Source: Bdellovibrionales bacterium
GTDB taxonomy: Bacteria > Bdellovibrionota > Bdellovibrionia > Bdellovibrionales > JAGQZY01
Length of the DNA: 64,000 nucleotides
Assembly (NCBI GenBank): GCA_041739665.1
Contig: JBGSNK010000077.1
Span: forward strand, 11,204 to 75,203
Direction: 5' to 3'
A program made the translations under genes and the position numbers. Below the pieces are notes generated by a model that ran no database searches, had not been told where the DNA came from, and saw only the letters and a list, made by a program, of their open reading frames with translations. Positions 7,539-49,185 of this stretch are shown here, piece after piece (the first letter of the stretch is position 1; every line of letters begins with the position of its first letter).

Positions 7539-9352
7539 TCCAATTCGGTTAATTGAGACTCAAATTTCTGAAGAGTCTTATCTTGCTGATTAATAAGTTC
7601 ATCGAGCCTTTGATAACTGGTGGCAATTTTCATCTGAACTTCACCAATTTTTTGGAATAAATCTTGTGCCACTGGCGTTCCATACTCCAATTCTGCCATC
7701 ATCCTGTTTTTTTCTTCCAAATCGGACTCAAGATCTATGATACTCAATTCCAGTTTCTCAATTTCTTTTTTTATGGGATTCACCTGCTTGGCTCGGGCTT
7801 GCACAATTTCAGCGCGACGACGTCGCATTTCTTTTTTATCGTGATTGTTTTTTTTGGATTTTTGAACAGGCTCTTCACCCCAACCCTCTTTATTTAAAAA
7901 TTCTTCATAGGTCCCTAAGAAAAGATGGGCGTCTCCATTTTTAAACACGATAAGCTTGTTAGCCAATTTATCGAGAAGATCCTCATCATGACTGACAAAG
8001 AGAACACCACCAGGAAAATTGTCAATCTCTTCACAAAGAGCTTGAATAGACTCCATATCCAAGTGATTGGTGGGCTCATCTAAGAGTAAAAGATTGCAAG
8101 ACTTAGCAATGACTTTGCCCAACAAAACACGTCCTTGTTCGCCACCAGAAAGAACCGAGATTTTTTTTTCAGCATCATCGCCCGAGAACATCATAGCTCC
8201 ACAGATCGAACGCACTTGGCTTATCGAGAGGTTTGGGTTCTCGGAGCCAATCTCTTCATAAACCATTGCGTTGGGACTGAGCTTCTTTTTGTTGGTCTGC
8301 TGGTAGTAGGCAATGCGACTGTCGGGATGCTGGCTGATCTGTCCGTGAGCCGCGACCTGTCCGGCTATGGCGTTGAGTAAAGTCGTTTTACCGTAACCAT
8401 TTTTACCAATGATGGCGATGCGATCCTCGGGCTCTACACGAAAACTCAAGCCCTTGAACAAGGGATTTGCAGGATCATAACCAAACTCAAGATCCTCTAC
8501 AGTCATTAGAACTTTTGCAGGTGTTTCTTTAAAATTAAATCGAAAGCCGAGCTGATCTTCCGCTGAGAGTTTCATCATCGGTTTGATTTTTTCAATTTTC
8601 TTCAATTTTGATTGAGCTTGTTTAGCCTTGGAACTCTTGGCTCGAAAGCGATCCACAAAGGCCTGCATCTCTTTGACTTTTTTCTCTTGATTGACCCTGG
8701 TTTTTTCATAAATCTCCTCGTCAAGAGAGAGTTGCTCATAATACTTGCTTGTGTTGCCTTCGATTTTTCGTAAGCTTTGGCGATGAATACCCATGGTGTG
8801 GGTCACGACCGAGTCCATAAAGTTCCGATCGTGGGTGATGAGGATCACCTCCCCGCTAAAGTTTTTTAGAAACTGCCGCATCCAGTGCAAACTTAAAATA
8901 TCAAGATAGTTGGTCGGCTCGTCGAGTAACAAAAGATCGGGTTCTTGCAAAAGACTTTTCACTAAATTAATACGCAATTGGAAGCCGCCGGAGAATTCAT
9001 GGGGCGAGCGAGTCATATCTTCGGAAGTAAATCCCAGTCCGAAAAGCAGAGCTTCGGCTTTATAGAGATCGTTCTCACTGCCGCGAGGCAGGGCCGTGGC
9101 CGCCTCTTTGAGAACCTGGTCTTCTGTGAAGCGAATATGCTGATCTAAAAAACCGATGCGATAGGATTTGGGACAGTGGATATCGCCGTGATCCGCTTGC
9201 TCTTCCCCACGCATGATCTTAAACAACGTGGACTTTCCACAACCATTGCGCCCGACTAGCCCCACTACCTCGCCAGGACTGACCGAAAAAGACACATCTG
9301 AAAATAAAATACGAGATCCATAGGATTTTTGAAGATTGGCAACTTGTAGCAT
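7535..9352 (-). CDS. ABC-F family ATPase (two ABC domains, no TM domain, coiled-coil C-terminal extension)
   Basis: 605 aa with two Walker A motifs (GRNGCGKST, GKNGYGKTT), two signature motifs (FSGGFQ, LSGGEQ) and a basic/coiled C-terminus. Confidence 0.9.
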   Translation of the reverse strand: MLQVANLQKSYGSRILFSDVSFSVSPGEVVGLVGRNGCGKSTLFKIMRGEEQADHGDIHCPKSYRIGFLDQHIRFTEDQVLKEAATALPRGSENDLYKAEALLFGLGFTSEDMTRSPHEFSGGFQLRINLVKSLLQEPDLLLLDEPTNYLDILSLHWMRQFLKNFSGEVILITHDRNFMDSVVTHTMGIHRQSLRKIEGNTSKYYEQLSLDEEIYEKTRVNQEKKVKEMQAFVDRFRAKSSKAKQAQSKLKKIEKIKPMMKLSAEDQLGFRFNFKETPAKVLMTVEDLEFGYDPANPLFKGLSFRVEPEDRIAIIGKNGYGKTTLLNAIAGQVAAHGQISQHPDSRIAYYQQTNKKKLSPNAMVYEEIGSENPNLSISQVRSICGAMMFSGDDAEKKISVLSGGEQGRVLLGKVIAKSCNLLLLDEPTNHLDMESIQALCEEIDNFPGGVLFVSHDEDLLDKLANKLIVFKNGDAHLFLGTYEEFLNKEGWGEEPVQKSKKNNHDKKEMRRRRAEIVQARAKQVNPIKKEIEKLELSIIDLESDLEEKNRMMAELEYGTPVAQDLFQKIGEVQMKIATSYQRLDELINQQDKTLQKFESQLTELD

Positions 9353-9355
9353 AAA

Positions 9356-9871
9356 TTATTTTTTTTCCTCAAAGGTGCGACGACGTTTGTTTTTCTGCAC
9401 ATGGGGCACCTTAAAGACATGATTGTGGAAGCTGATATAAAAACCGGGACTTAAGAGCTGGCAGGCGATCAGGGCTTCAATAAAATTTTGCGCAGCATCA
9501 GAGTCCTCAAAACCCATGGGTTTCATCGCACCGGTGAAAACGACGGCCACAGGGGGAGTGGGGCACTGGCTTTGGCAGTATTCAGCTGATTTTTCCATGG
9601 TATCCGTCCCATGCAGGATGACTATGGGGCTTTGGTGGGCGAATTCTTCTTCTATATTTTGCCAAATCTTGAGTCGATCCTCATCGGTCATATGCAGGGA
9701 ATCCTTGGCCATGAGCTCACGCAAAGTCACCTGGGTATGGGGCAAGCGCAAGCGGGATAAGAGCCGATTCTTGAGAAAGGACTGGCGGTTTTTGAGGGAC
9801 CCATCCATCTCATTGTAACTTTTTTCAATGGTCCCACCTGTCGTGAGAATTCGAACCTGATTTTGCGGCAT
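9356..9871 (-). CDS. asparaginase-domain protein (short, 171 aa)
   Basis: ILTTGGTIEKSY matches the TGGTI catalytic-Thr motif of the L-asparaginase N-terminal domain, followed by HGTDTM. It is only about half the length of classical asparaginases. Confidence 0.6.
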   Translation of the reverse strand: MPQNQVRILTTGGTIEKSYNEMDGSLKNRQSFLKNRLLSRLRLPHTQVTLRELMAKDSLHMTDEDRLKIWQNIEEEFAHQSPIVILHGTDTMEKSAEYCQSQCPTPPVAVVFTGAMKPMGFEDSDAAQNFIEALIACQLLSPGFYISFHNHVFKVPHVQKNKRRRTFEEKK

Positions 9872-12909: not shown

Positions 12910-13890
12910 CTATTCGATACCCAAGTGGACAATCCTGGCCCCTGTCTGACTCACAGGATTCACACTTTTACCGATAACCACACCGTCCTCTGGAGCTAAG
13001 TATTCTTGCTTCATGCTGCCAAAGATATCTGTGATCTGGGCAATGACTTCACCCTTTTTTACCCGCTGTGTAACATGGGGAAAAACTTCGAGAAAGCCTC
13101 CTCGGTCCGTGTAAACCCAATAGGACTTTTCACAAAGAATAGGCTCTTGCTTGGAGTGTTCTTGCTCGACAGGCAACATCTTGAGGTGACTCAGAATATT
13201 GTGAACACCAACTAACGAAAATTTAATCAGCTTTTTTTGAAAACGCTGGGGGTCCCCCACTTCGACTGTTATGGCCGGGATTCCCATCTTGGCCGCAGCT
13301 CCTCTTAAGGACTTATCCTTGCCCTTGTTGTGGACAATAATTTGAGGGTGTTGGAGCAAGGCAAAGCGTTTTGATATAGGGTTTTCCATATCCGCCCGAA
13401 CATACAGAGAATTGACTCGCCCAAAGCTGGCGGTGTGAAGGTCAATGAGATAATCGAACTGGCTGACAATGTTTTTAATAAAACGCCATGAGTACTGCTC
13501 ACTTGAGTTTCCACTGGCTTTACCAGGCATGATTCGGTTGAGATCAATACCATTATTAAACTCGCGCGAATTGGCGATAAGTCCCGGAATATTCACAACC
13601 GGAACAGCAACCACAGTGCCACTTAAAACATCAATATCTTTCTCGATCTCCCGAATCAGATTATGCAGAACTTTGACTCCGTTGAGTTCATTACCATGCA
13701 CTGCAGCCGTGATGCCGACAACCGGCCCATTTTCTAAGCCACGCGCCACAAATACCGGCAACAGAACAGGGTACCCCATCCCATTTTCGGTAATGCGTAG
13801 ATGGTATCTTTGAGTTGTTCCAGGTGTTTGCTTGTGAAACAGAATACGGTCTTTAATTATAATATTGCTACTGGTAATCATAGATCTCAC
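12910..13890 (-). CDS. succinylglutamate desuccinylase/aspartoacylase (AstE/AspA) family zinc hydrolase
   Basis: 326 aa with AAVHGNELNG (HxxE zinc site) and DLHTAS motifs. The start may instead be the second ATG at 13881. Confidence 0.75.
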   Translation of the reverse strand: MRSMITSSNIIIKDRILFHKQTPGTTQRYHLRITENGMGYPVLLPVFVARGLENGPVVGITAAVHGNELNGVKVLHNLIREIEKDIDVLSGTVVAVPVVNIPGLIANSREFNNGIDLNRIMPGKASGNSSEQYSWRFIKNIVSQFDYLIDLHTASFGRVNSLYVRADMENPISKRFALLQHPQIIVHNKGKDKSLRGAAAKMGIPAITVEVGDPQRFQKKLIKFSLVGVHNILSHLKMLPVEQEHSKQEPILCEKSYWVYTDRGGFLEVFPHVTQRVKKGEVIAQITDIFGSMKQEYLAPEDGVVIGKSVNPVSQTGARIVHLGIE

Positions 13891-41253: not shown

Positions 41254-42685
41254 GTACGATTTCAATATGGTGGCCATAGGTGCCGGCGCAGCTGGTCTTG
41301 TGACCTCTTACATTTGTGCCGCGACTCAGGGTAAGGTGGCTTTAATTGAAAAACACAAAATGGGTGGAGATTGCCTTAACACTGGATGCGTTCCCAGCAA
41401 GGCTTTAATTCGCACTGCTAAATTTATGAATGATATTAAGAACGCTCAAAAATTGGGAATTCAAGAGGCCCATGCCACTTTGGATTTCAAACAAGTTATG
41501 GATCGCGTGCAAAGAGTGATTCAAACTATCGAACCCCACGACTCGGTAGAACGCTACCAGTCTCTAGGTGTGGATTGTTTTATTGGAGAGGCTAAAATTT
41601 TGTCACCTCACCATGTGGAGGTCAATGGCCAAACCCTGACTACCAAAAATATCACGATCGCAACCGGAGCAAGACCACTGATTCCCAATATCCCTGGGCT
41701 CAAAGACGTTAACCCGCTAACTTCGGACAACTTGTGGCAACTTCGTGAGGCTCCCAAACACTTGGTGATCTTAGGCGGCGGTCCTATTGGCTCGGAATTG
41801 GCCCAAGCCTTTTCTCGCCTCGGAGTTAAAGTCACACAAGTGGAAATGGCTGATCGGCTTTTGCAAAAAGAGGATTCGGACGTTTCCCAAATAGTCTTAG
41901 AGAAATTTCAAAAAGAAGGAATTGAAGTTTTATTACAACACCGCCTCGTATCGGCAAGAAAAGAAGGCTCACAAATCCATCTTGAGTGTGAGGCCCCAGA
42001 AGGACCGCGAACCATCAACTGTGATCAAGTGCTTGTGGCTCTTGGGCGACAAGCCAACACCCGTGGCTTTGGTTTAGAGGAATTAGGAGTGGAAACACAT
42101 CCCAATGGCACTGTTAAAGTCGACCCCTATTTGCGAACCCTTAAGTATAAAAATATTTATGCTTGCGGCGATGTGGCTGGCCCTTACCAGTTCACCCATG
42201 TGGCAGCCCACCAAGCCTGGTTTTGCTCAGTCAACTCCATGGTTCTCCCCTTTTGGGGATTCAAAGCAAACTATGATGTGATTCCATGGGCCACATATAC
42301 GGATCCGGAAGTGGCACGGGTTGGAATCAATGAACAAGAGGCAAAAGAGAAAAATATTCCCTATCAGTTGACCACCTATGAATTAAAAGGTCTTGATCGA
42401 GCAGTCACCGACGAAGCCGCCTATGGTTTGGTCAAAGTCCTCACCCCTCCTAAAAAAGATAAAATTTTGGGAGTCACAATAGTGGGTCTACATGCCGGAG
42501 ATATAATGGCCGAATATGTCCTCGCCATGAAGCATGGACTGGGACTCAATAAAATATTGGGCACCATCCACATCTATCCCACTCTAGCTGAAGCCAATAA
42601 ATATGCAGCTGGAAATTGGAAAAAATCACAGGTCAGCCCCGCCACCCTTAAATGGGGAGAACGCCTCAATCGTTGGCGTCGCTAA
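41246..42685 (+). CDS. FAD-dependent pyridine nucleotide-disulfide oxidoreductase (mercuric reductase / dihydrolipoamide dehydrogenase-like)
   Basis: 479 aa with GAGAAG, the redox-active GGDCLNTGCVPSK motif, a second GGGPIG NAD site and a dimerisation domain. It overlaps the TVP38 gene by 8 nt. The TVP38 + reductase pairing is, to my knowledge, a recurring association. Confidence 0.85.
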   Translation: MAKYDFNMVAIGAGAAGLVTSYICAATQGKVALIEKHKMGGDCLNTGCVPSKALIRTAKFMNDIKNAQKLGIQEAHATLDFKQVMDRVQRVIQTIEPHDSVERYQSLGVDCFIGEAKILSPHHVEVNGQTLTTKNITIATGARPLIPNIPGLKDVNPLTSDNLWQLREAPKHLVILGGGPIGSELAQAFSRLGVKVTQVEMADRLLQKEDSDVSQIVLEKFQKEGIEVLLQHRLVSARKEGSQIHLECEAPEGPRTINCDQVLVALGRQANTRGFGLEELGVETHPNGTVKVDPYLRTLKYKNIYACGDVAGPYQFTHVAAHQAWFCSVNSMVLPFWGFKANYDVIPWATYTDPEVARVGINEQEAKEKNIPYQLTTYELKGLDRAVTDEAAYGLVKVLTPPKKDKILGVTIVGLHAGDIMAEYVLAMKHGLGLNKILGTIHIYPTLAEANKYAAGNWKKSQVSPATLKWGERLNRWRR

Positions 42686-43652
42686 AATGGGAAAAACCTT
42701 TGCTAGTCGGTTGCCAGACCTTCCCGTGCAATAAATACCTGGGTTTCTGATCTTCTGACTTTGGGGCAATATAGCCAATGGGAAAAATTTTATCCCCAAA
42801 CTTAGATTCAAAAGCATGGTTGATTTGATGCAAATATTTTTCGCGGACTCCAAACAAAAGACGATAATCCTCGCCGCCATTTACCGCAAAGTCATAAGGG
42901 TTCAAATGCTGATTGCGACACAACTCTTGAACCTCAAGACTCAAAGGTATGTCTTGAACCCATACTTGATAATCCACGCCTTCAATTCGCTGTAAATCGC
43001 TCCAAAGTCCGTCAGAGAGATCAATCATCCCATGAACCCCTTTTTGTTTGGCTAAGAACTGAGCCTTGGTCCACTCGATGGGGGGGCGATGGTGACGTTG
43101 GACGAGAGTCTTCACAAGGGGGTGTTCCACATTATTTTGTAAAGTCCACAATCCCAAAGCAGAGTCACCCAAGGAGCCCGTCACACATAGCAAATCAGCT
43201 TTAACAAAGTCCTGCCGATACTGGACCGACTTTTTTTTCACAATCCCACTGATATTCACGTTGATAAAAAGGTCGTGACGAGAGCGGCTCAGATCCCCTC
43301 CCAAGAGGTGAACCCCTTGTTTTCGCGCTTCTTTCTTAAAGCCATTAAAGAAAGTCTCCAATGACGTCTCGTCCACTTTTGGAGGAACGGCTAAACTCAA
43401 ATGCACCCAGAGAGGCTGCCCTCCCATAGCTGCAATATCGCTGATGTTCACAGCCAAGGCTTTATAGGCGAGGTCTTCAAAAGAAATATTTTCCAAATTG
43501 AAGTGAACCCCCTCAATCATAAGATCTGAAGATTGAATGAGCAGTTGTTTACGCCCCCACGGGACCGTACTACAGTCGTCACCGACAGCCATGATGGCCA
43601 GATCAGAATGGCCTCCCTTTATAACTCTGTTTATAAAATCAAATTCGTTCAT
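42666..43652 (-). CDS. thiL: thiamine-monophosphate kinase
   Basis: 328 aa with an AIR-synthase-like fold (GDDCS...DLMIEGVHF...ISDIAAMGG...GGDL). Confidence 0.85.
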   Translation of the reverse strand: MNEFDFINRVIKGGHSDLAIMAVGDDCSTVPWGRKQLLIQSSDLMIEGVHFNLENISFEDLAYKALAVNISDIAAMGGQPLWVHLSLAVPPKVDETSLETFFNGFKKEARKQGVHLLGGDLSRSRHDLFINVNISGIVKKKSVQYRQDFVKADLLCVTGSLGDSALGLWTLQNNVEHPLVKTLVQRHHRPPIEWTKAQFLAKQKGVHGMIDLSDGLWSDLQRIEGVDYQVWVQDIPLSLEVQELCRNQHLNPYDFAVNGGEDYRLLFGVREKYLHQINHAFESKFGDKIFPIGYIAPKSEDQKPRYLLHGKVWQPTSKGFSHFSDAND

Positions 43653-43916
43653 AATGATTTAAACACCCCTTCTATCTCTATTCAAACATTGTGACCAATA
43701 AAGGATCTAATATAAGAATAGCTCAAATAAGGTCCACTTGGTCTACTAAAAATAAAGCACCAACCTCCCATCCTGAACCCCAAACGTTTGCAACAGCAAC
43801 TATCAATATTGTTACAACTTGTTTCAAAAGATACGATCAAATTCGAATCCGAAGAACATTAGTGCAAATCAGATAGTTTTGGGCCCCAAATGAACTCAAT
43901 TTTAAGCAAATTCTAG

Positions 43917-43932
43917 CGGCACGCTCCTTGCT
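43917..43932 (+). promoter_or_regulatory. sigma-54 (-24/-12) promoter
   Basis: cGGCACGctccTTGCt. GG is at 43918-43919 and GC at 43930-43931, exactly the TGGCACG-N4-TTGC spacing. It lies about 30 nt upstream of a strong RBS and ATG. Confidence 0.6.
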
Positions 43933-43960
43933 CATTAGGTATTCAACAACCAAGGAGGAA

Positions 43961-44011
43961 ATGTGGAAGTCATTGGGAATAACGCAAAAGAGATTTTTAA
44001 CTCTGTTCTAA
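43961..44011 (+). CDS. 16-aa micro-ORF (MWKSLGITQKRFLTLF)
   Basis: AAGGAGG sits 2 nt upstream of the ATG, just downstream of the sigma-54 promoter. Below the ORF-track length cutoff. Confidence 0.3.
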   Translation: MWKSLGITQKRFLTLF

Positions 44012-44168
44012 CCCCCTACCAGGCTCATTATTTGCTGAAAGTTCTGGATAGCAATTCATCAAATCAGTTTGCCCAACATTTTATGAGTAAACGACATCAA
44101 AAAAAGGACTTTATGATTATTCAAAGATCAGAAGATTAATAAACCAATAAGCCAAAGGAGACATCATT

Positions 44169-44294
44169 ATGGAACAAAAAAAGACGAATAAAACGCCACG
44201 AGATCAGTCCGCAGCAAAGACTGATTCGGACAGAAAAAATGAGGAAAAGGATCGAAAAACTGCCCAAGGTCAGGGTAAGGAGAGGTCTAGATAA
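44169..44294 (+). CDS. 41-aa highly charged small protein (MEQKKTNKTPRDQSAAKTDSDRKNEEKDRKTAQGQGKERSR)
   Basis: AAAGGAGA is 7 nt upstream of the ATG, and a clean terminator follows. Below the ORF-track length cutoff. Confidence 0.45.
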   Translation: MEQKKTNKTPRDQSAAKTDSDRKNEEKDRKTAQGQGKERSR

Positions 44295-44337
44295 CACCAA
44301 TTCATTTGGTGGAACCTGAGCGAACCTGACTAGGGAA

Positions 44338-44369
44338 CCGCATACAGAGTGATTTGTATGCGGTTTTTT
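44338..44369 (+). terminator. rho-independent terminator
   Basis: CCGCATACA 44338-44346 / TGTATGCGG 44355-44363, then T6 at 44364-44369. Confidence 0.75.
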
Positions 44370-44520
44370 AAGATCTTTGGAGCCACTTTTGTTTCTATCT
44401 AAGCAAGGTCTACACAGTTGCTACACAATTTAAAGAGACGACTGTGCAAAAATAGGGTGACCGGAATCTCCAAAGACTAAAAAAATGACATAATTATAAA
44501 ACTTATCTTGACCTCATAAG

Positions 44521-44549
44521 TTGCTGTAAAGAATTCCCATTGTTATAAT
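44521..44549 (+). promoter_or_regulatory. candidate sigma-70 promoter of the regulator-kinase operon
   Basis: TTGCTG (44521-44526), 17 nt, TATAAT (44544-44549), about 57 nt upstream of the ATG at 44607. Confidence 0.4.
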
Positions 44550-44606
44550 TAATTAAGTCATATAAATTACAATTGTTTGGTGGAGAGATAAAGGAAGGAT
44601 TGCTGA

Positions 44607-46016
44607 ATGCCCTCTTCGATATTGATCCTAGATGACGACATCGACATCTGTCGCCTGTTTAAAACAGGCTTCGAGAATAAAGATTTTACAGCCGATATTG
44701 CAAACTCCCTTAAAGAAGCAAAAGCACTTGTCGAGAAAAAGCACTACGATGCTGTCCTTGCTGACATTTTTCTTGGCGAAGAAGACGGCCTTAACGGTTT
44801 ACAAGAACTGATCCAAATCAGTCCACGCACTCGCTACTTTTCGTTCACCAGCCAAGAAACTATACCATTAGCTGTTGGAGCCATGGAAAAGGGGGCAGCG
44901 AACTTCTTCCCAAAATCCCTGGGGTTAGATAAAATCATTGAACTTGTTAAATCAAAATTAGATCTTGAAATTGAAGTTACACCTCAAGATATCTGCGCCC
45001 ATCCAGACCTTATTGGACAGTCGCAAGAGATGTTTAAGGTCATGAGTCGCATTCAACAGTTTAGTCAGGTCGATTCAACAGTACTTATCACCGGTGAGTC
45101 GGGTACAGGTAAAGAAATTATTGCCAAAGCTATTCATGAAACTGGCTCACGTAATGAAGGAACTTTTCAAGCTATCAACTGCGGCGCAATTCCAGAAAAT
45201 CTTTTAGAGTCTGAATTCTTTGGACATACTAGAGGTGCTTTCACCGATGCTAAAAGTGATAAAAAAGGTCTCTTTGAAATCTGCACTAATGGCACACTCA
45301 TGTTAGACGAAATTGGCGACATGCCCCTTTCTTTACAAGTGAAACTCCTGCGCGTATTACAAGAGAAAGAAATTCGCCCCATCGGGGCAACACGATCTAT
45401 ATCAGTCAACCCACGCATAATTGCTTGCACTCACAGAGACCTTGGGGAAATGGTTCAGAATGGCACTTTTCGACAAGATCTATTGTTTCGTCTTTCAGTT
45501 TTACGTCTTGATGTTCCACCTCTGAGGCAAAGAAAAGAAGACATTCCCCTGCTTGCACAAGAATTTATTAATCGCTTTAATAAACGCTTCAAAAAAAATA
45601 TCTCACTCCCCTCACCTGAACTTTTAGTTCGATTGCAAAATTACGATTGGCCTGGAAATGTTCGCGAGTTACAGAATTCTTTGGAACGGGCTGTTGTTCT
45701 CGCTCATAAAAACGAACTCAGCCCCGAAGATATCTTCAATTCCAATCATCCTGCCACCCCAGATGCAGAAAAATCGGCACAAGATATCCCTCTGACACAT
45801 GAAATTGCTAAAAGTGAATTTGAAAAAAACTACACTCGCCATCTTCTAGAGGAGTCGCATGGGAATATTACTTTAGCTGCCAAAATGTCTGGCAAACACA
45901 GAGTAGAAATTTACCGTCTTATGAAAAAATTTGATTTCCATAGAGAAGACTTCTTTCCAAACAAAAAAAAAACTAACTATCAGGAGATCGCAGGTGGCTA
46001 CACCACTTCGAATTAA
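44607..46016 (+). CDS. sigma-54-dependent response regulator (NtrC family enhancer-binding protein)
   Basis: 469 aa with a REC domain (DDD...LADIFL), an AAA+ domain with GESGTGKE, the GAFTDA variant of GAFTGA, and a C-terminal HTH. Confidence 0.9.
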   Translation: MPSSILILDDDIDICRLFKTGFENKDFTADIANSLKEAKALVEKKHYDAVLADIFLGEEDGLNGLQELIQISPRTRYFSFTSQETIPLAVGAMEKGAANFFPKSLGLDKIIELVKSKLDLEIEVTPQDICAHPDLIGQSQEMFKVMSRIQQFSQVDSTVLITGESGTGKEIIAKAIHETGSRNEGTFQAINCGAIPENLLESEFFGHTRGAFTDAKSDKKGLFEICTNGTLMLDEIGDMPLSLQVKLLRVLQEKEIRPIGATRSISVNPRIIACTHRDLGEMVQNGTFRQDLLFRLSVLRLDVPPLRQRKEDIPLLAQEFINRFNKRFKKNISLPSPELLVRLQNYDWPGNVRELQNSLERAVVLAHKNELSPEDIFNSNHPATPDAEKSAQDIPLTHEIAKSEFEKNYTRHLLEESHGNITLAAKMSGKHRVEIYRLMKKFDFHREDFFPNKKKTNYQEIAGGYTTSN

Positions 46017-46021
46017 TTGAT

Positions 46022-48625
46022 TTGTCGGTAACCCATTTTAAACGCTCGCAAAACTATACCTTTCCTCTCATCATATCGTTTTTGGTTGCTACAGGAATTT
46101 TATTTGCTAGCCTTTATGAGAACTACCTCTCTGTCTATAAAGAAAAACAAAAGAGTTTAGTCTCACTTCTAAAACTTAACGTTCGCCTTATAGAACAAAT
46201 CGACTCAGGACAATTAGACCGAGACAGAGCCTATAAAAAATTGATGGGTAACAACCAATACCTCACCCAGGTCGACCCGGAGATTCTTTTCGAGTGGATA
46301 TACACTTCCCCTAAAGGAGTTCATGTCAATTCTTGGGGACCTCACCCTGGCCTAAGCCAGAAAGTCTACGCGTTTGACAGCCCTGATTTAGGTTCTCTGG
46401 CTAAACTGGCCTTAACAGAGAGAAACGGCTTTAAATCGACTAGGGATCGTAAAAATGCCCCAGTTTTAGCAGCCTACCAATATATTGAGCCTCTTGATGT
46501 CATTTTAGTTGGGAAGATTAAAGTTCACGATATTCAAAATACTTTTCTCTCTCTAGCACGAAGGATGCTTGTTATTTCTTTATTGTTTATTGTGGCAGGT
46601 CTAATTAGCTTTAGCCTATACAAACGTCACTACAGAAACCTTGAGGCCAAACACGCCAAACAACTTAAACATACAATCGACACTCTCAATGCTTACAAAA
46701 AGGGTATGGACACCCACTCCATGCTTTGTTTGACCAACAAAAAGGGTCGAATTATCGAAGCAAACAAACGCTTCCTCAAAAATACTGGCTACTCACTTGA
46801 AGAAATTGTTGGGAAATCGTTTGCAATATTTAAATCGGAAGAACATCCCCCTGAATTTTTTAAAAACTTGTGGGACACGATCCTATCAAACAGAGTTTGG
46901 CATGGTCAGATCAAAAACAAACGCAAGAACGGAACTTTTTTTTGGGTCGACACCACTATAACCCCTGTTAAGCAAGACAATATCGATGGTTTTATATGTA
47001 TTCAAACAGAAATTACAGATAAAAAATTATTTGAAGAAAAGCTTATTCTGGCAAAAGCATATGCCGAGGTTGCTAGTGAACGTAAAAGCTCTTTCTTGTC
47101 TCATATGAGTCATGAAATCCGCACTCCCCTGTCTTCAATTATTGGCTATATAGAACTTATTGAAAAAGACGACTCATTGAGCCCAAGAACCAAACAATAT
47201 ATGCAGACTATCAGAACAAACTCACAGCATTTATCGGCGTTGGTGGGCGAGGTCCTGGATTTCTCGAAAATCGAAGCTGGTCAGCTGGAAATTAAAAAGG
47301 CGTGGATGTCTTTTGAAGGCTTAGTCCAAAAAATTGTCAACCTCTTTCAAAATAAATCACCCCATATTGAACTTAAGGTTCATTTCCAGACGCCCCTTCC
47401 CCTCCGAATATTAACTGACCCTTTACGTTTTCAGCAGATCTTAATTAACCTATTAAGCAATGCCTTTAAGTTTACAAAGAAAGGTGAGATTCAGTTAACT
47501 TTTAGACTTTCAGACCCAAGCATTGATGATTTTAAAAATAAATTAGTTATTGAAGTAGAAGATTCTGGGATAGGTATAGAAAAAAAATATATTGGTAACA
47601 TTTTTAAGCCCTTTGCCCAAGCGGCCCCCTTCCATCAACGCAAAACAAGCGGGACCGGCTTAGGTCTTTCTTTATCAAAAGAGCTTGCCCATCTATTGGG
47701 TGGTGATTTGATTTTAGTGAAAACTGAACCAGAAAAAGGGTCCACTTTTAGAGCCTATATTGATTTCGGTGGAAGCAGCCAAAGCAATATGAGTTGGAAG
47801 CCACCACAATTGCTTCCAAATAACCAAACTAATAACCATCCTCAGGTCGCTCGTCTTCCTGTGGCAGCGCCCCTTGTTTCTATGAATGTTCTTGTTGTGG
47901 AAGACTCTGAGGATATTAGTGAGTTGATTCGTATCAACCTCGTTGAGGCCGGGGCGAATGTGGATGTGGCTAGTACGGCCAAGCAAGCTCTTCGTCGCTT
48001 AGATAAGAAACAATATGACGTGGTGGTTCTCGATATCCAACTACCACGTATGTCAGGTCATCAGTTGGTCCAAATTATTCATACCAGATCACCTCGCCTA
48101 CCTGTCTTAGCACTGACTGCTCATTCGACAAAAACAGAAAAAGAAGCCTGCTTTAGTAGTGGTTTTAATGATTTCCTAACCAAACCTATAGACTTTGATT
48201 GCTTAATTAATACGATTGCCAAATATCGAGATACTTTTCCCCAACATATCGAGAACGGATGCCTCGATGAGAATCTACCTCCTCTTTTCTCATTACTTGC
48301 AGAGAATCCTCGAGTGCAAGATCAACTAGAACTTTTTGCGAATACAATGTTAGTAAAAATTACTGACTGTATTAAGATGACAGAAAAAGCGGAGTGGTCC
48401 GATTTAAAAAGTTACTGCCACAAAATCAAAGGGGCCTTCGGAACCTATGGTTATCCAGAACTACAAAATGAGGCTCATAAGATCGAAGACCTCTGTCACT
48501 CCGCCCTCGACGACACAAAAAAACAAGGGGCTATATCCCTACATATCGAGAACATGAAGAAACTGGCGATCCGCAGTGCTTTGCCCTTCGAAGTTACTGA
48601 GCCCTTCACGATCGACCAAATCTAA
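46022..48625 (+). CDS. hybrid sensor histidine kinase (TM sensor-PAS-HisKA-HATPase-REC-HPt)
   Basis: 867 aa with the H-box SHMSHEIRTPL, N/G boxes (LLSNAFKFT, DSGIGI, GTGLGLS), REC (VVVLDIQLPRMSG) and an HPt-like HKIKGAFGTYG. Confidence 0.9.
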   Translation: MSVTHFKRSQNYTFPLIISFLVATGILFASLYENYLSVYKEKQKSLVSLLKLNVRLIEQIDSGQLDRDRAYKKLMGNNQYLTQVDPEILFEWIYTSPKGVHVNSWGPHPGLSQKVYAFDSPDLGSLAKLALTERNGFKSTRDRKNAPVLAAYQYIEPLDVILVGKIKVHDIQNTFLSLARRMLVISLLFIVAGLISFSLYKRHYRNLEAKHAKQLKHTIDTLNAYKKGMDTHSMLCLTNKKGRIIEANKRFLKNTGYSLEEIVGKSFAIFKSEEHPPEFFKNLWDTILSNRVWHGQIKNKRKNGTFFWVDTTITPVKQDNIDGFICIQTEITDKKLFEEKLILAKAYAEVASERKSSFLSHMSHEIRTPLSSIIGYIELIEKDDSLSPRTKQYMQTIRTNSQHLSALVGEVLDFSKIEAGQLEIKKAWMSFEGLVQKIVNLFQNKSPHIELKVHFQTPLPLRILTDPLRFQQILINLLSNAFKFTKKGEIQLTFRLSDPSIDDFKNKLVIEVEDSGIGIEKKYIGNIFKPFAQAAPFHQRKTSGTGLGLSLSKELAHLLGGDLILVKTEPEKGSTFRAYIDFGGSSQSNMSWKPPQLLPNNQTNNHPQVARLPVAAPLVSMNVLVVEDSEDISELIRINLVEAGANVDVASTAKQALRRLDKKQYDVVVLDIQLPRMSGHQLVQIIHTRSPRLPVLALTAHSTKTEKEACFSSGFNDFLTKPIDFDCLINTIAKYRDTFPQHIENGCLDENLPPLFSLLAENPRVQDQLELFANTMLVKITDCIKMTEKAEWSDLKSYCHKIKGAFGTYGYPELQNEAHKIEDLCHSALDDTKKQGAISLHIENMKKLAIRSALPFEVTEPFTIDQI

Positions 48626-48853
48626 GTATAAAAAAGATGAGCTTGGAATCAAGGCCGGAACAGATACCCTGGAAAAGATATTTTTCTTGAGAATCTGGCG
48701 ACAGCCAATAGTGCGCTCTAGCAATCCGCAAAAAAAGTAAAACGCAGCGACGGAACCTGCGAATAAATAAACAAAAAAAATGAAGAGTGGTGTGCCTGCA
48801 ATCATTAACCATGGCAAAGCCATTAACCCACAAATTAGACCCAACAGTAGCAT
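48539..48853 (-). CDS. small two-TM membrane protein
   Basis: 104 aa. AAGGAGG is 5 nt upstream of the ATG. It has two hydrophobic helices. Its 3' end overlaps the convergent kinase gene by 87 nt. Confidence 0.5.
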   Translation of the reverse strand: MLLLGLICGLMALPWLMIAGTPLFIFFVYLFAGSVAAFYFFCGLLERTIGCRQILKKNIFSRVSVPALIPSSSFLYLDLVDREGLSNFEGQSTADRQFLHVLDM

Positions 48854-49185
48854 AAAATCCTCCTTTATCAGCCCTCCCTAAACAAAGTATTTCAAAAGCT
48901 ATGCCACAAAACATTGGGTTTTATTGGATCTGAATCGAAGTAGGTTGGATTATATGCCCTTATCAAGGAAGCAAAAGAAGGCCGTGTTACCTCCGAATAC
49001 AACGTAACAAGATGTTTCACTCTCTGGGTAAAATTTATGAATCAGATGAACCGCTCAAAACTCCCAGAGATCAAGACGTTGAGAAAAACTCTGAAGAAGA
49101 GCGTGCGGAAATACTAAATTATTTTAAAACAGGGCGAGTAGAACTCGTTGATGCTGTGCTTCTGCAAAAAGAAGCAGGTACTTAA

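Follow-up and report, generated by a model that had tools for sequence, protein, structure and literature searches.

A likely sigma-54-dependent operon for two small proteins beside an NtrC-family regulator and a hybrid kinase in a Bdellovibrionales bacterium

Organization of the locus

The stretch of DNA analysed here, 64,000 nt of contig JBGSNK010000077.1 from a Bdellovibrionales bacterium (hereafter the window), contains an intergenic region of 954 nt (43653-44606) between a thiL-like gene and the gene of an NtrC-family response regulator. This region hosts a promoter of the sigma-54 type and two small open reading frames (ORFs), named ORF1 and ORF2 below. Its left flank is an AIR-synthase-related gene, probably thiL (42666-43652, minus strand), and on its right the regulator gene is followed by that of a hybrid sensor kinase. 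The locus belongs to a poorly studied, uncultured Bdellovibrionota-like lineage, and the source names of the closest homologues of the regulator include Bdellovibrionales, Pseudobdellovibrionaceae and Oligoflexales, among others. An original prediction, made from the sequence of the window, had described the intergenic region as the direct target of the adjacent two-component system, with a 16-codon and a 41-codon ORF on one short transcript.

Two relatives, L082 and L084, have the same gene order as the window, with regulators that are 91% and 87% identical to that of the window, respectively. A metagenome scan with the ORF1 alignment returned only two contigs, L094 and L095, both of which exactly match L084 around ORF1. 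The intergenic regions of the window, L082 and L084 were aligned and the invariant columns were counted per segment; unless stated otherwise, conservation refers to these three species. When the regulator was used as the query in a contig scan, only generic NtrC-family matches were obtained (35-50% identity in the best segment), without a syntenic relative.

Promoter and upstream sites

The sigma-54-type promoter cGGCACGctccTTGCt is located at 43917-43932 on the plus strand, with the -24 GG at 43918-43919 and the -12 GC at 43930-43931, and fits 11 of the 12 specified positions of TGGCACG-N4-TTGCW. Its core, GGCACG-N4-TTGC (GGCACGctccTTGC, 43918-43931), is the single exact match in the 64 kb, against 0.10 expected from shuffling (one match in 10 of 100 shuffled windows). 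With one mismatch allowed, the pattern is no more frequent in the window than chance predicts, and for this reason the sequence match taken alone would be weak evidence. The corresponding elements in L082 and L084 are CGGCACAGTCCTTGCT and CGGCATAATCCTTGCT, respectively, so that 13 of the 16 columns (81%) are invariant, including GG and TTGC. The thiL-proximal spacer and the spacer between the upstream sites and the -24 element reach 31% and 38%. The promoter is intergenic and correctly oriented, with its -12 element approximately 32 nt before the GTG start codon of ORF1, and transcription is predicted to start near 43943, given the usual distance between -12 and +1. We infer that this promoter is sigma-54-dependent. 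The proposed near-consensus element with exact -24/-12 spacing was thereby borne out as unique in the window and conserved in three species.

Upstream of the promoter lies a dyad, TTGCAACA-N14-TGTTACAA (43788-43817), with 7 of 8 positions complementary. Together with a TGTTTCA at 43820, it forms a cluster of three TGTTNCA half-sites that has no counterpart elsewhere in the 64 kb. These half-sites have been kept in the three species (62% invariant columns), whereas the intervening spacers vary. Two 17-bp sites, related to the palindrome TGAAACA-N3-TGTTTCA, are the best reading of the dyad. Putative activator site A (TGCAACA-gca-ACTATCA, 43789-43805, plus strand) has a conserved left half, which reads TGCAACA, TGAAACA and TGCAACA in the three species, and a degenerate right half. 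Putative activator site B (TGTTACA-act-TGTTTCA, 43810-43826, plus strand) is conserved in L082 and L084, aligns with the palindrome at the same 3-nt spacing and is one of two matches to it in the window at no more than two mismatches. The centres of the two sites are 21 bp apart, corresponding to two helical turns. Site B is located 91-107 nt upstream of the promoter element, and the conserved sites overall 91-128 nt. The dyad, which had been proposed as an enhancer-binding site, is thus real, conserved in two relatives and part of a triple half-site cluster.

The same palindrome is found at more distant loci. In L085 and L091, TGAAACA-N3-TGTTTC(A) precedes sigma-54-type elements by 66-119 nt, and copies of GAAACA are found ahead of the promoter of an ORF1-like gene in L087. 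The regulators that share the palindrome also share a nearly invariant recognition helix, SGKHRVEIYRLM, in their helix-turn-helix (HTH) domain. For this comparison of binding-site motif and recognition helix, and for no other, we included the distant regulator homologues of L089-L093 (51-59% identity). In the DNA retrieved for these five loci no full hybrid kinase was found beside the regulator, and the three that were checked for an ORF1-like gene (L089-L091) had none. From the shared palindrome and helix we infer that the adjacent regulator binds sites A and B.

A second strong sigma-54-like match in the window, TGGCACTGTGGTTGCT (13606-13621, minus strand; 11 of 12 specified positions), is situated inside a succinylglutamate desuccinylase/aspartoacylase-like ORF (12910-13890, minus strand) and may represent either an internal promoter or a coincidence.

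The two small genes

The first cistron is preceded by a Shine-Dalgarno sequence, AAGGAGG (43951-43957, plus strand), that is invariant in the three species. It stands 5 nt before the GTG start codon of ORF1 (43963-44139, plus strand), which has 58 codons and encodes an orphan small protein, predicted to be helical, that begins with MEVIGNNAKEIFNSVLTPYQAHYLLKVLDSNS. ORF1 has 78% invariant columns. Its dN/dS is 0.05-0.11 (Nei-Gojobori), and 25 of its 39 variable columns are at third codon positions, whereas in the other two frames over the same DNA the proportion of non-synonymous differences exceeds that of synonymous ones (pN > pS). ORF1 has been called as a gene in L082 and L084 and is also a predicted protein on the source record.

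The original prediction had instead assigned the perfect AAGGAGG to a 16-codon ATG ORF in a different frame (43961-44011, plus strand), of which the ATG overlaps the GTG of ORF1 by one base. The ribosome-binding site (RBS) is real and invariant, but the 16-codon ORF was rejected as a gene. Where the window has its ATG start codon, L082 has AAG and L084 has GTG, and substitutions in its frame are mostly non-synonymous. The in-frame conservation of this ORF, proposed as a check, was examined in a Ka/Ks-type comparison, in which the frame was not conserved. Moreover, the ATG is only 3 nt from the AAGGAGG, compared with the better spacing of 5 nt for the GTG. Because start codon conservation, dN/dS, third-position variation and Shine-Dalgarno spacing all fit the GTG frame, we conclude that the first cistron encodes the 58-aa protein; the 16-codon frame is open only through its overlap with ORF1.

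ORF1 had no significant match in Pfam, NCBIfam or PDB. A word-indexed search of 5.8 billion clusters with ORF1 and the ORF1-family alignment returned only the window clade and two further proteins, P0124 and P0125. A full HMMER scan of 1.84 billion representatives returned only the ORF1 family plus P0126 and P0127, and these last two were rejected as family members, being repeat proteins with repeat-inflated matches. The AlphaFold2 model of ORF1 consists of three helices and is of low confidence (predicted local distance difference test, pLDDT, 61; predicted template modelling score, pTM, 0.31).

P0124 and P0125 are distant small proteins encoded beside orthologues of the regulator-kinase pair with 65% (L085) and 60% (L087) identity, respectively, and have the N-terminal motif FNxVL[TS]xxQA in common with ORF1. 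A profile hidden Markov model built only from the three close ORF1 sequences ranked them first and second among 720 six-frame segments from five loci (E = 9e-4 and 9e-3). Their homology to ORF1 seems likely on these grounds but thin. An ORF1-family gene therefore probably adjoins the regulator-kinase pair in three lineages, in rearranged positions. In the window clade the gene precedes the regulator. The ORF1-like gene of L087 is also upstream of the regulator, has its own sigma-54-like element, TGGCACaaagcTTGC, and is followed by a 69-aa hydrophilic ORF with a second such element. In L085 it occupies the third position in a gene cluster that follows the kinase and is headed by a weaker sigma-54-like element, TGGCTTtgcatTTGC.

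The spacer between ORF1 and ORF2 is only 33% invariant and contains indels, but the Shine-Dalgarno sequence AAGGAG (44155-44160, plus strand) was kept in all three species. It is positioned 8 nt before the ATG start codon of ORF2 (44169-44294, plus strand). The encoded 41-aa protein is very hydrophilic and basic (pI approximately 10; grand average of hydropathy, GRAVY, -2.5), is probably disordered and ends in the invariant C-terminus PAQGQGKERSR. Its dN/dS is 0.13-0.32, half of its variable columns (17 of 34) are at third positions, and a single one-codon indel between the relatives is in frame. ORF2 was likewise called as a gene in the relatives and predicted on the source record; it had no family match in Pfam, NCBIfam or PDB. 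In L087, the 69-aa ORF resembles ORF2 in composition alone. The coding pattern, the dN/dS and the conserved RBS agree with the 41-aa, highly charged ORF that had been predicted at these coordinates.

The 3' segment and terminator

A predicted intrinsic terminator, with a 13-bp stem and a U6 tract, is located at 44336-44369 (plus strand). The 86-nt stretch that holds it (44290-44375) has a folding energy of -31 kcal/mol (z = -6.1), and one pair of the stem changes on both sides between species, from C:G to U:A. This is the sole covarying pair. A simple terminator scan missed this terminator, probably because of its loop-length limit; the hairpin itself is conserved (79% invariant columns) and substantiates the clean terminator that had been placed at 44338-44369.

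Conserved islands, namely the promoter, the activator sites, both ORFs and the terminator, stand apart from fast-changing DNA in the three-species alignment. The spacer that follows the terminator has 9% invariant columns and has been mostly deleted in L084. The alignment thus indicates that these elements are under selection as a unit separate from the regulator operon.

At the nucleotide level, conservation also extends over the last part of ORF2 and the 3' untranslated region (UTR). While the first 29 codons of ORF2 have 62% invariant columns, the last 13 have 90%, with 11 of 13 third positions invariant versus 46 of 86 elsewhere (Fisher p = 0.04). Invariant columns make up 75% of the 3' UTR and, when the terminator is included, number 59 of 77, compared with 84 of 251 in the other non-coding segments (p = 3e-11). 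This over-conservation (44256-44369, plus strand) exceeds that of synonymous sites and of the other non-coding DNA of the locus. RNAalifold and single-sequence folding predicted a conserved RNA structure in this segment (44263-44335, plus strand), comprising a long-range stem GGUCAGG/CCUGACU around a CACCAA/UUGGUG hairpin, with z = -2.3 without the terminator. Its stems show no covariation, since the paired bases do not vary among the three species. The region had no match in Rfam at gathering or E-value thresholds (E up to 1), and a covariance model of the element found no matches beyond the three close species, the distant loci included. The 3' element was also tested for RNA duplexes with the 5' UTRs of ORF1, of ORF2, of the regulator and of a membrane-protein gene on the other flank of the kinase, and the predicted pairing was no better than that of shuffled controls. 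A 3'-derived regulatory RNA or an mRNA-stability element is possible, judging from the conservation and the predicted fold.

The regulator-kinase operon

The regulator gene (44607-46016, plus strand) encodes an NtrC-family response regulator and enhancer-binding protein (EBP) with the Pfam domains REC, Sigma54_activat and HTH_8. The Sigma54_activat match has an E-value of 4.5e-67, and the AAA+ sigma-54 interaction domain is intact. The loop of this domain, FGHTRGAFTDAK, contains GAFTDA, and its 120 best homologues all fall under G[AS]FTDA (85 with GAFTDA, 30 with GSFTDA and 5 not parsed). As these homologues carry G(A/S)FTDA instead of GAFTGA, the Gly-to-Asp change is a fixed trait of a large EBP clade, not a defect of a single gene. 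GAFTDA is a tolerated variant in Desulfovibrio vulgaris, in which the EBP DVU2106 carries it and has been credited with sigma-54-dependent targets (PMC4641369). The regulator scored below every NCBIfam equivalog cut-off; against the GlrR model it reached 371 bits (cut-off 763), and the PEP-CTERM response regulator, AtoC and NtrC models scored similarly.

The gene that follows (46022-48625, plus strand; start codon uncertain) encodes a hybrid sensor kinase with PAS, HisKA, HATPase, REC and Hpt domains (Pfam). The sequence as read from a TTG start is not on record in that form. Two transmembrane (TM) segments, recognized from hydropathy, flank a sensor domain of approximately 140 aa. Because the kinase has HisKA, HATPase, REC and Hpt domains, a complete phosphorelay from the kinase to the regulator is plausible.

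These two genes are preceded by a sigma-70-type promoter, TTGCTG-N17-TATAAT with a TG extension (44521-44549, plus strand), which is invariant in the three species and was not reported by a consensus promoter scan. The block that comprises this promoter and the 5' UTR of the regulator gene (44496-44606) has 81% invariant columns. The domains and the invariant promoter block confirm an NtrC-family activator of the GAFTDA type and a hybrid kinase with their own sigma-70-like promoter, as had been predicted. The conservation of block 44496-44606 goes beyond what the promoter hexamers alone need. An inverted repeat, CTTAT-N9-ATAAG, lies in it just upstream of the -35 element, and a 9-mer, TTTGGTGGA, is common to the block and the ORF2 3' UTR. 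This block may be an operator or a 5' UTR element; a search of it for the regulator palindrome gave no match at up to three mismatches.

Proposed regulation of the small-protein operon

We consider it likely that the intergenic region is a sigma-54-dependent, enhancer-activated bicistronic operon, with a transcript of approximately 430 nt (approximately 43943-44369) that encodes two lineage-specific small proteins of 58 and 41 aa. The adjacent regulator is the probable activator of its promoter, because the gene linkage has been kept, the regulators that share the palindrome share the recognition helix and the EBP domain looks competent. Of the proposed direct target of the two-component system, the conserved promoter, the upstream site, the short terminated transcript and the probable link to the regulator are retained, and the micro-ORF is not.

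In the mechanism that we propose, the membrane-bound hybrid kinase would sense a periplasmic signal, a signal perceived by its PAS domain, or both, and would pass phosphate via its HisKA, REC and Hpt domains to the receiver domain of the adjacent NtrC-type regulator. The regulator would assemble on the sites at 43789-43805 and 43810-43826, approximately 90-130 bp ahead of the -24 element, and would then open the closed sigma-54 complex at GGCACG-N4-TTGC by looping the DNA and hydrolysing ATP. The resulting mRNA of approximately 430 nt, for ORF1 and ORF2, would stop at the strong intrinsic terminator, while the regulator-kinase operon would be transcribed from its own sigma-70-type promoter. 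As to the products, we can only guess, with low confidence, at a cytoplasmic effector or feedback partner of the system for ORF1 and at a hydrophilin-like or a nucleic-acid- or ribosome-associated peptide for ORF2.

Several points weigh against this interpretation. The close comparison is based on just three species. No rpoN was found among the scanned ORFs of the window, and its presence in the genome is deduced from that of the EBP. The right half of site A is degenerate, and the arrangement of the sites differs among lineages, those of L087 being just 21-56 nt upstream of the promoter element. The homology of ORF1 with the proteins of L085 and L087 hangs on an N-terminal motif of approximately 15 residues, and a profile of ORF2 found no sequence homologue in the distant loci. 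The low-confidence model of ORF1 (pLDDT 61) lends no structural support to any proposed function. Finally, an EBP encoded elsewhere could be the true activator.

This last alternative, a true sigma-54 promoter activated by a different EBP, with the adjacency being coincidental, seems improbable to us. Many NtrC-family proteins occur in Bdellovibrionota-like sources and other candidate activators are therefore likely to exist, but the ORF1-family gene stays by the orthologous regulator-kinase pair in three lineages despite rearrangement, and the shared half-site core travels with the nearly invariant recognition helix. In addition, a second copy of the palindrome, conserved in L082, is present on the far side of the regulator-kinase operon. 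We give hardly any weight to a chance -24/-12 match in AT-rich intergenic DNA, with the ORFs transcribed from an unrecognised sigma-70 promoter. Exact matches in 10 of 100 shuffles, and looser patterns at chance frequency, would permit such a coincidence, yet GG and TTGC are invariant in three species when the surrounding non-coding DNA is 31-38% invariant, and the element is correctly oriented and spaced relative to the ORF. The ORF1-like genes of L087 and L085 likewise follow sigma-54-like elements, and the promoter scan gave no plus-strand sigma-70 site upstream of ORF1.

Two further explanations concern the transcript. A dual-function mRNA, or a small RNA (sRNA) processed from approximately 44258-44369, could be the main product, with the ORFs being secondary; we regard this as unlikely, though less so than activation by another EBP. 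The near-invariant synonymous sites at the end of ORF2, the over-conserved 3' UTR and terminator and the multi-stem fold predicted ahead of the terminator are in line with an RNA product, for which GlmY, a sigma-54/GlrR-dependent sRNA encoded beside its two-component system, provides a precedent (PMC3045617). Both ORFs, however, have clear protein-coding signatures. The element has no Rfam match, its covariance model found nothing in the more distant loci, its stems lack covariation with a z of only -2.3 without the terminator, and its pairing with nearby 5' UTRs was no better than in shuffled sequences. A leader-peptide device, one of the options raised in the original prediction, is highly improbable; in it, the 16-codon micro-ORF of the transcript would act as a leader peptide or attenuator, and read-through of the terminator would control the regulator-kinase genes. 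It would explain the ATG that follows AAGGAGG and the strong terminator between the small ORFs and the regulator gene. It is contradicted by a first cistron under strong purifying selection (dN/dS 0.05-0.11), by substitutions that fit the 58-codon frame and no other, by the AAG in place of the 16-codon start in L082 and by the 3-nt distance of the ATG from the Shine-Dalgarno sequence, against 5 nt for the GTG. The predicted folds contain no alternative antiterminator pairing, and the regulator has its own invariant promoter block behind a spacer that is 9% invariant and largely deleted in L084. We thus favour the enhancer-activated operon with two protein products.

Comparison with known systems

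In layout, the closest analogue is the GlrK/GlrR (QseE/QseF)-glmY system of Enterobacteriaceae, in which a short sigma-54 transcript is encoded upstream of the genes of an NtrC-type system. The sigma-54/GlrR-dependent glmY transcript is encoded just upstream of the independently transcribed glrK/glrR, and its activator binds several repeated sites located over 100 bp upstream (PMC3045617; PMC8745638). The window differs from this system in several respects. Its product would be an mRNA for two conserved small proteins, without a match in Rfam. Its upstream sites are of the TGAAACA-N3-TGTTTCA type, and TGTCN10GACA is absent from 43653-43917 even with one mismatch allowed. The regulator gene comes before that of the kinase, which is of the hybrid type and contains PAS, REC and Hpt domains. 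Although some homologues of the regulator are labelled 'GlrR' in their sources, the score of 371 bits is well under the equivalog cut-off of 763. Membership of the GlrR/QseF-glmY system was rejected on the equivalog score, the product and the TGTCN10GACA sites.

The locus also resembles sigma-54 operons adjacent to the gene of a bacterial enhancer-binding protein (bEBP), such as those in the EBP regulons of D. vulgaris and pspF-pspA, which have the same layout of an EBP beside its target and dyads of upstream activating sequences approximately 100 bp upstream. Here, the target comprises only two orphan small proteins without a recognisable domain, of a family that only a few related lineages have. 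We would class the locus as one more sigma-54 target operon adjacent to a bEBP gene, one that carries two orphan small proteins. Small proteins of less than 100 aa whose genes are direct targets of two-component regulators, such as MgrB, SafA and PmrD, feed back on such systems or connect them. The likeness to ORF1 and ORF2 would be one of logic only, as there is no sequence similarity to any of the three and, unlike MgrB and SafA, ORF1 and ORF2 have no TM segment.

The regulatory logic, an EBP activating an adjacent sigma-54 promoter, is textbook, and the value of the locus lies in annotation and regulon mapping and not in a new concept. It gives an uncharacterised two-component system a concrete target, with a promoter, candidate binding sites and two small proteins. 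The gene model is corrected from a 16-codon peptide to a GTG-initiated protein of 58 aa, and a tiny orphan small-protein family (FNxVL[TS]xxQA) is defined, of which the genes follow sigma-54-type elements in three lineages. Interest in the locus gains a little from the orphan family, from the excess conservation of the 3' end and from a probable second target whose -12 element is atypical.

A second candidate target and neighbouring genes in other lineages

On the other flank of the regulator-kinase operon, a gene for a 104-aa membrane protein with two predicted TM segments (48539-48853, minus strand) overlaps the 3' end of the kinase gene. The protein has an N-terminal (A/V)(L/I)PW motif, and similar small membrane-protein genes are found by the regulator-kinase pair in L082 (7933-8247), L085 (3240-3602) and L087 (8026-8364), all on the minus strand. 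In the region upstream of the gene (48854-49019), a palindrome of the regulator type, TGAAACAtctTGTTACG (49019-49003, minus strand; conserved in L082), precedes a promoter-like element, TGGCATagcttTTGAA (48906-48891), by approximately 110 nt. This element has a perfect -24 but a -12 'GA' in place of 'GC'. Its equivalents are TGGCACagcttTTGAA in L082, TGGCATgctccTTGAA in L085 and TGGCACGgtgtTTGTA in L087; in L085, TGTTACAtaaTGTTTCA is located approximately 109 nt upstream of TGGCATgctccTTGAA. Probably, the same regulator has the membrane-protein gene as a second target, which would have an atypical sigma-54 -12 element retained in four lineages. Another candidate upstream of this gene, CACGGCCTTCTTTTGCT, was rejected as a sigma-54 site because its spacing deviates by one and the element lacks conservation in L082.

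More speculatively, and with a low probability in our estimation, the locus may be a compact lineage-specific signalling module. ORF1, ORF2 and the 104-aa membrane protein would be dedicated outputs of the two-component system and would feed back on, or connect, the kinase and the regulator; a regulatory RNA would arise from the last part of ORF2 and the 3' UTR, so that the transcript would be a dual-function message; and the membrane-protein gene would use a conserved sigma-54-like promoter without the canonical -12 C.

The L087 locus, of the lineage with 60% regulator identity, lies in a region rich in mobile elements, in which IS66-family transposase genes and a group II intron-type reverse transcriptase flank the module (1-922 and 9061-9410). 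Genes for CBS-domain proteins are present beside the regulator homologues of L087 (1380-1838, minus strand), L091 (3107-3589, minus strand), L096 (4199-4678, plus strand) and L085 (8163-8495, plus strand). They are preceded by the sigma-54-like elements TGGCCTATTGCTTGCT, TGGTATGTTACTTGCT, TGGACTCTAGTTTGCA and TGGCTTTGCATTTGCA, which suggests an ancestral regulon with a CBS protein.

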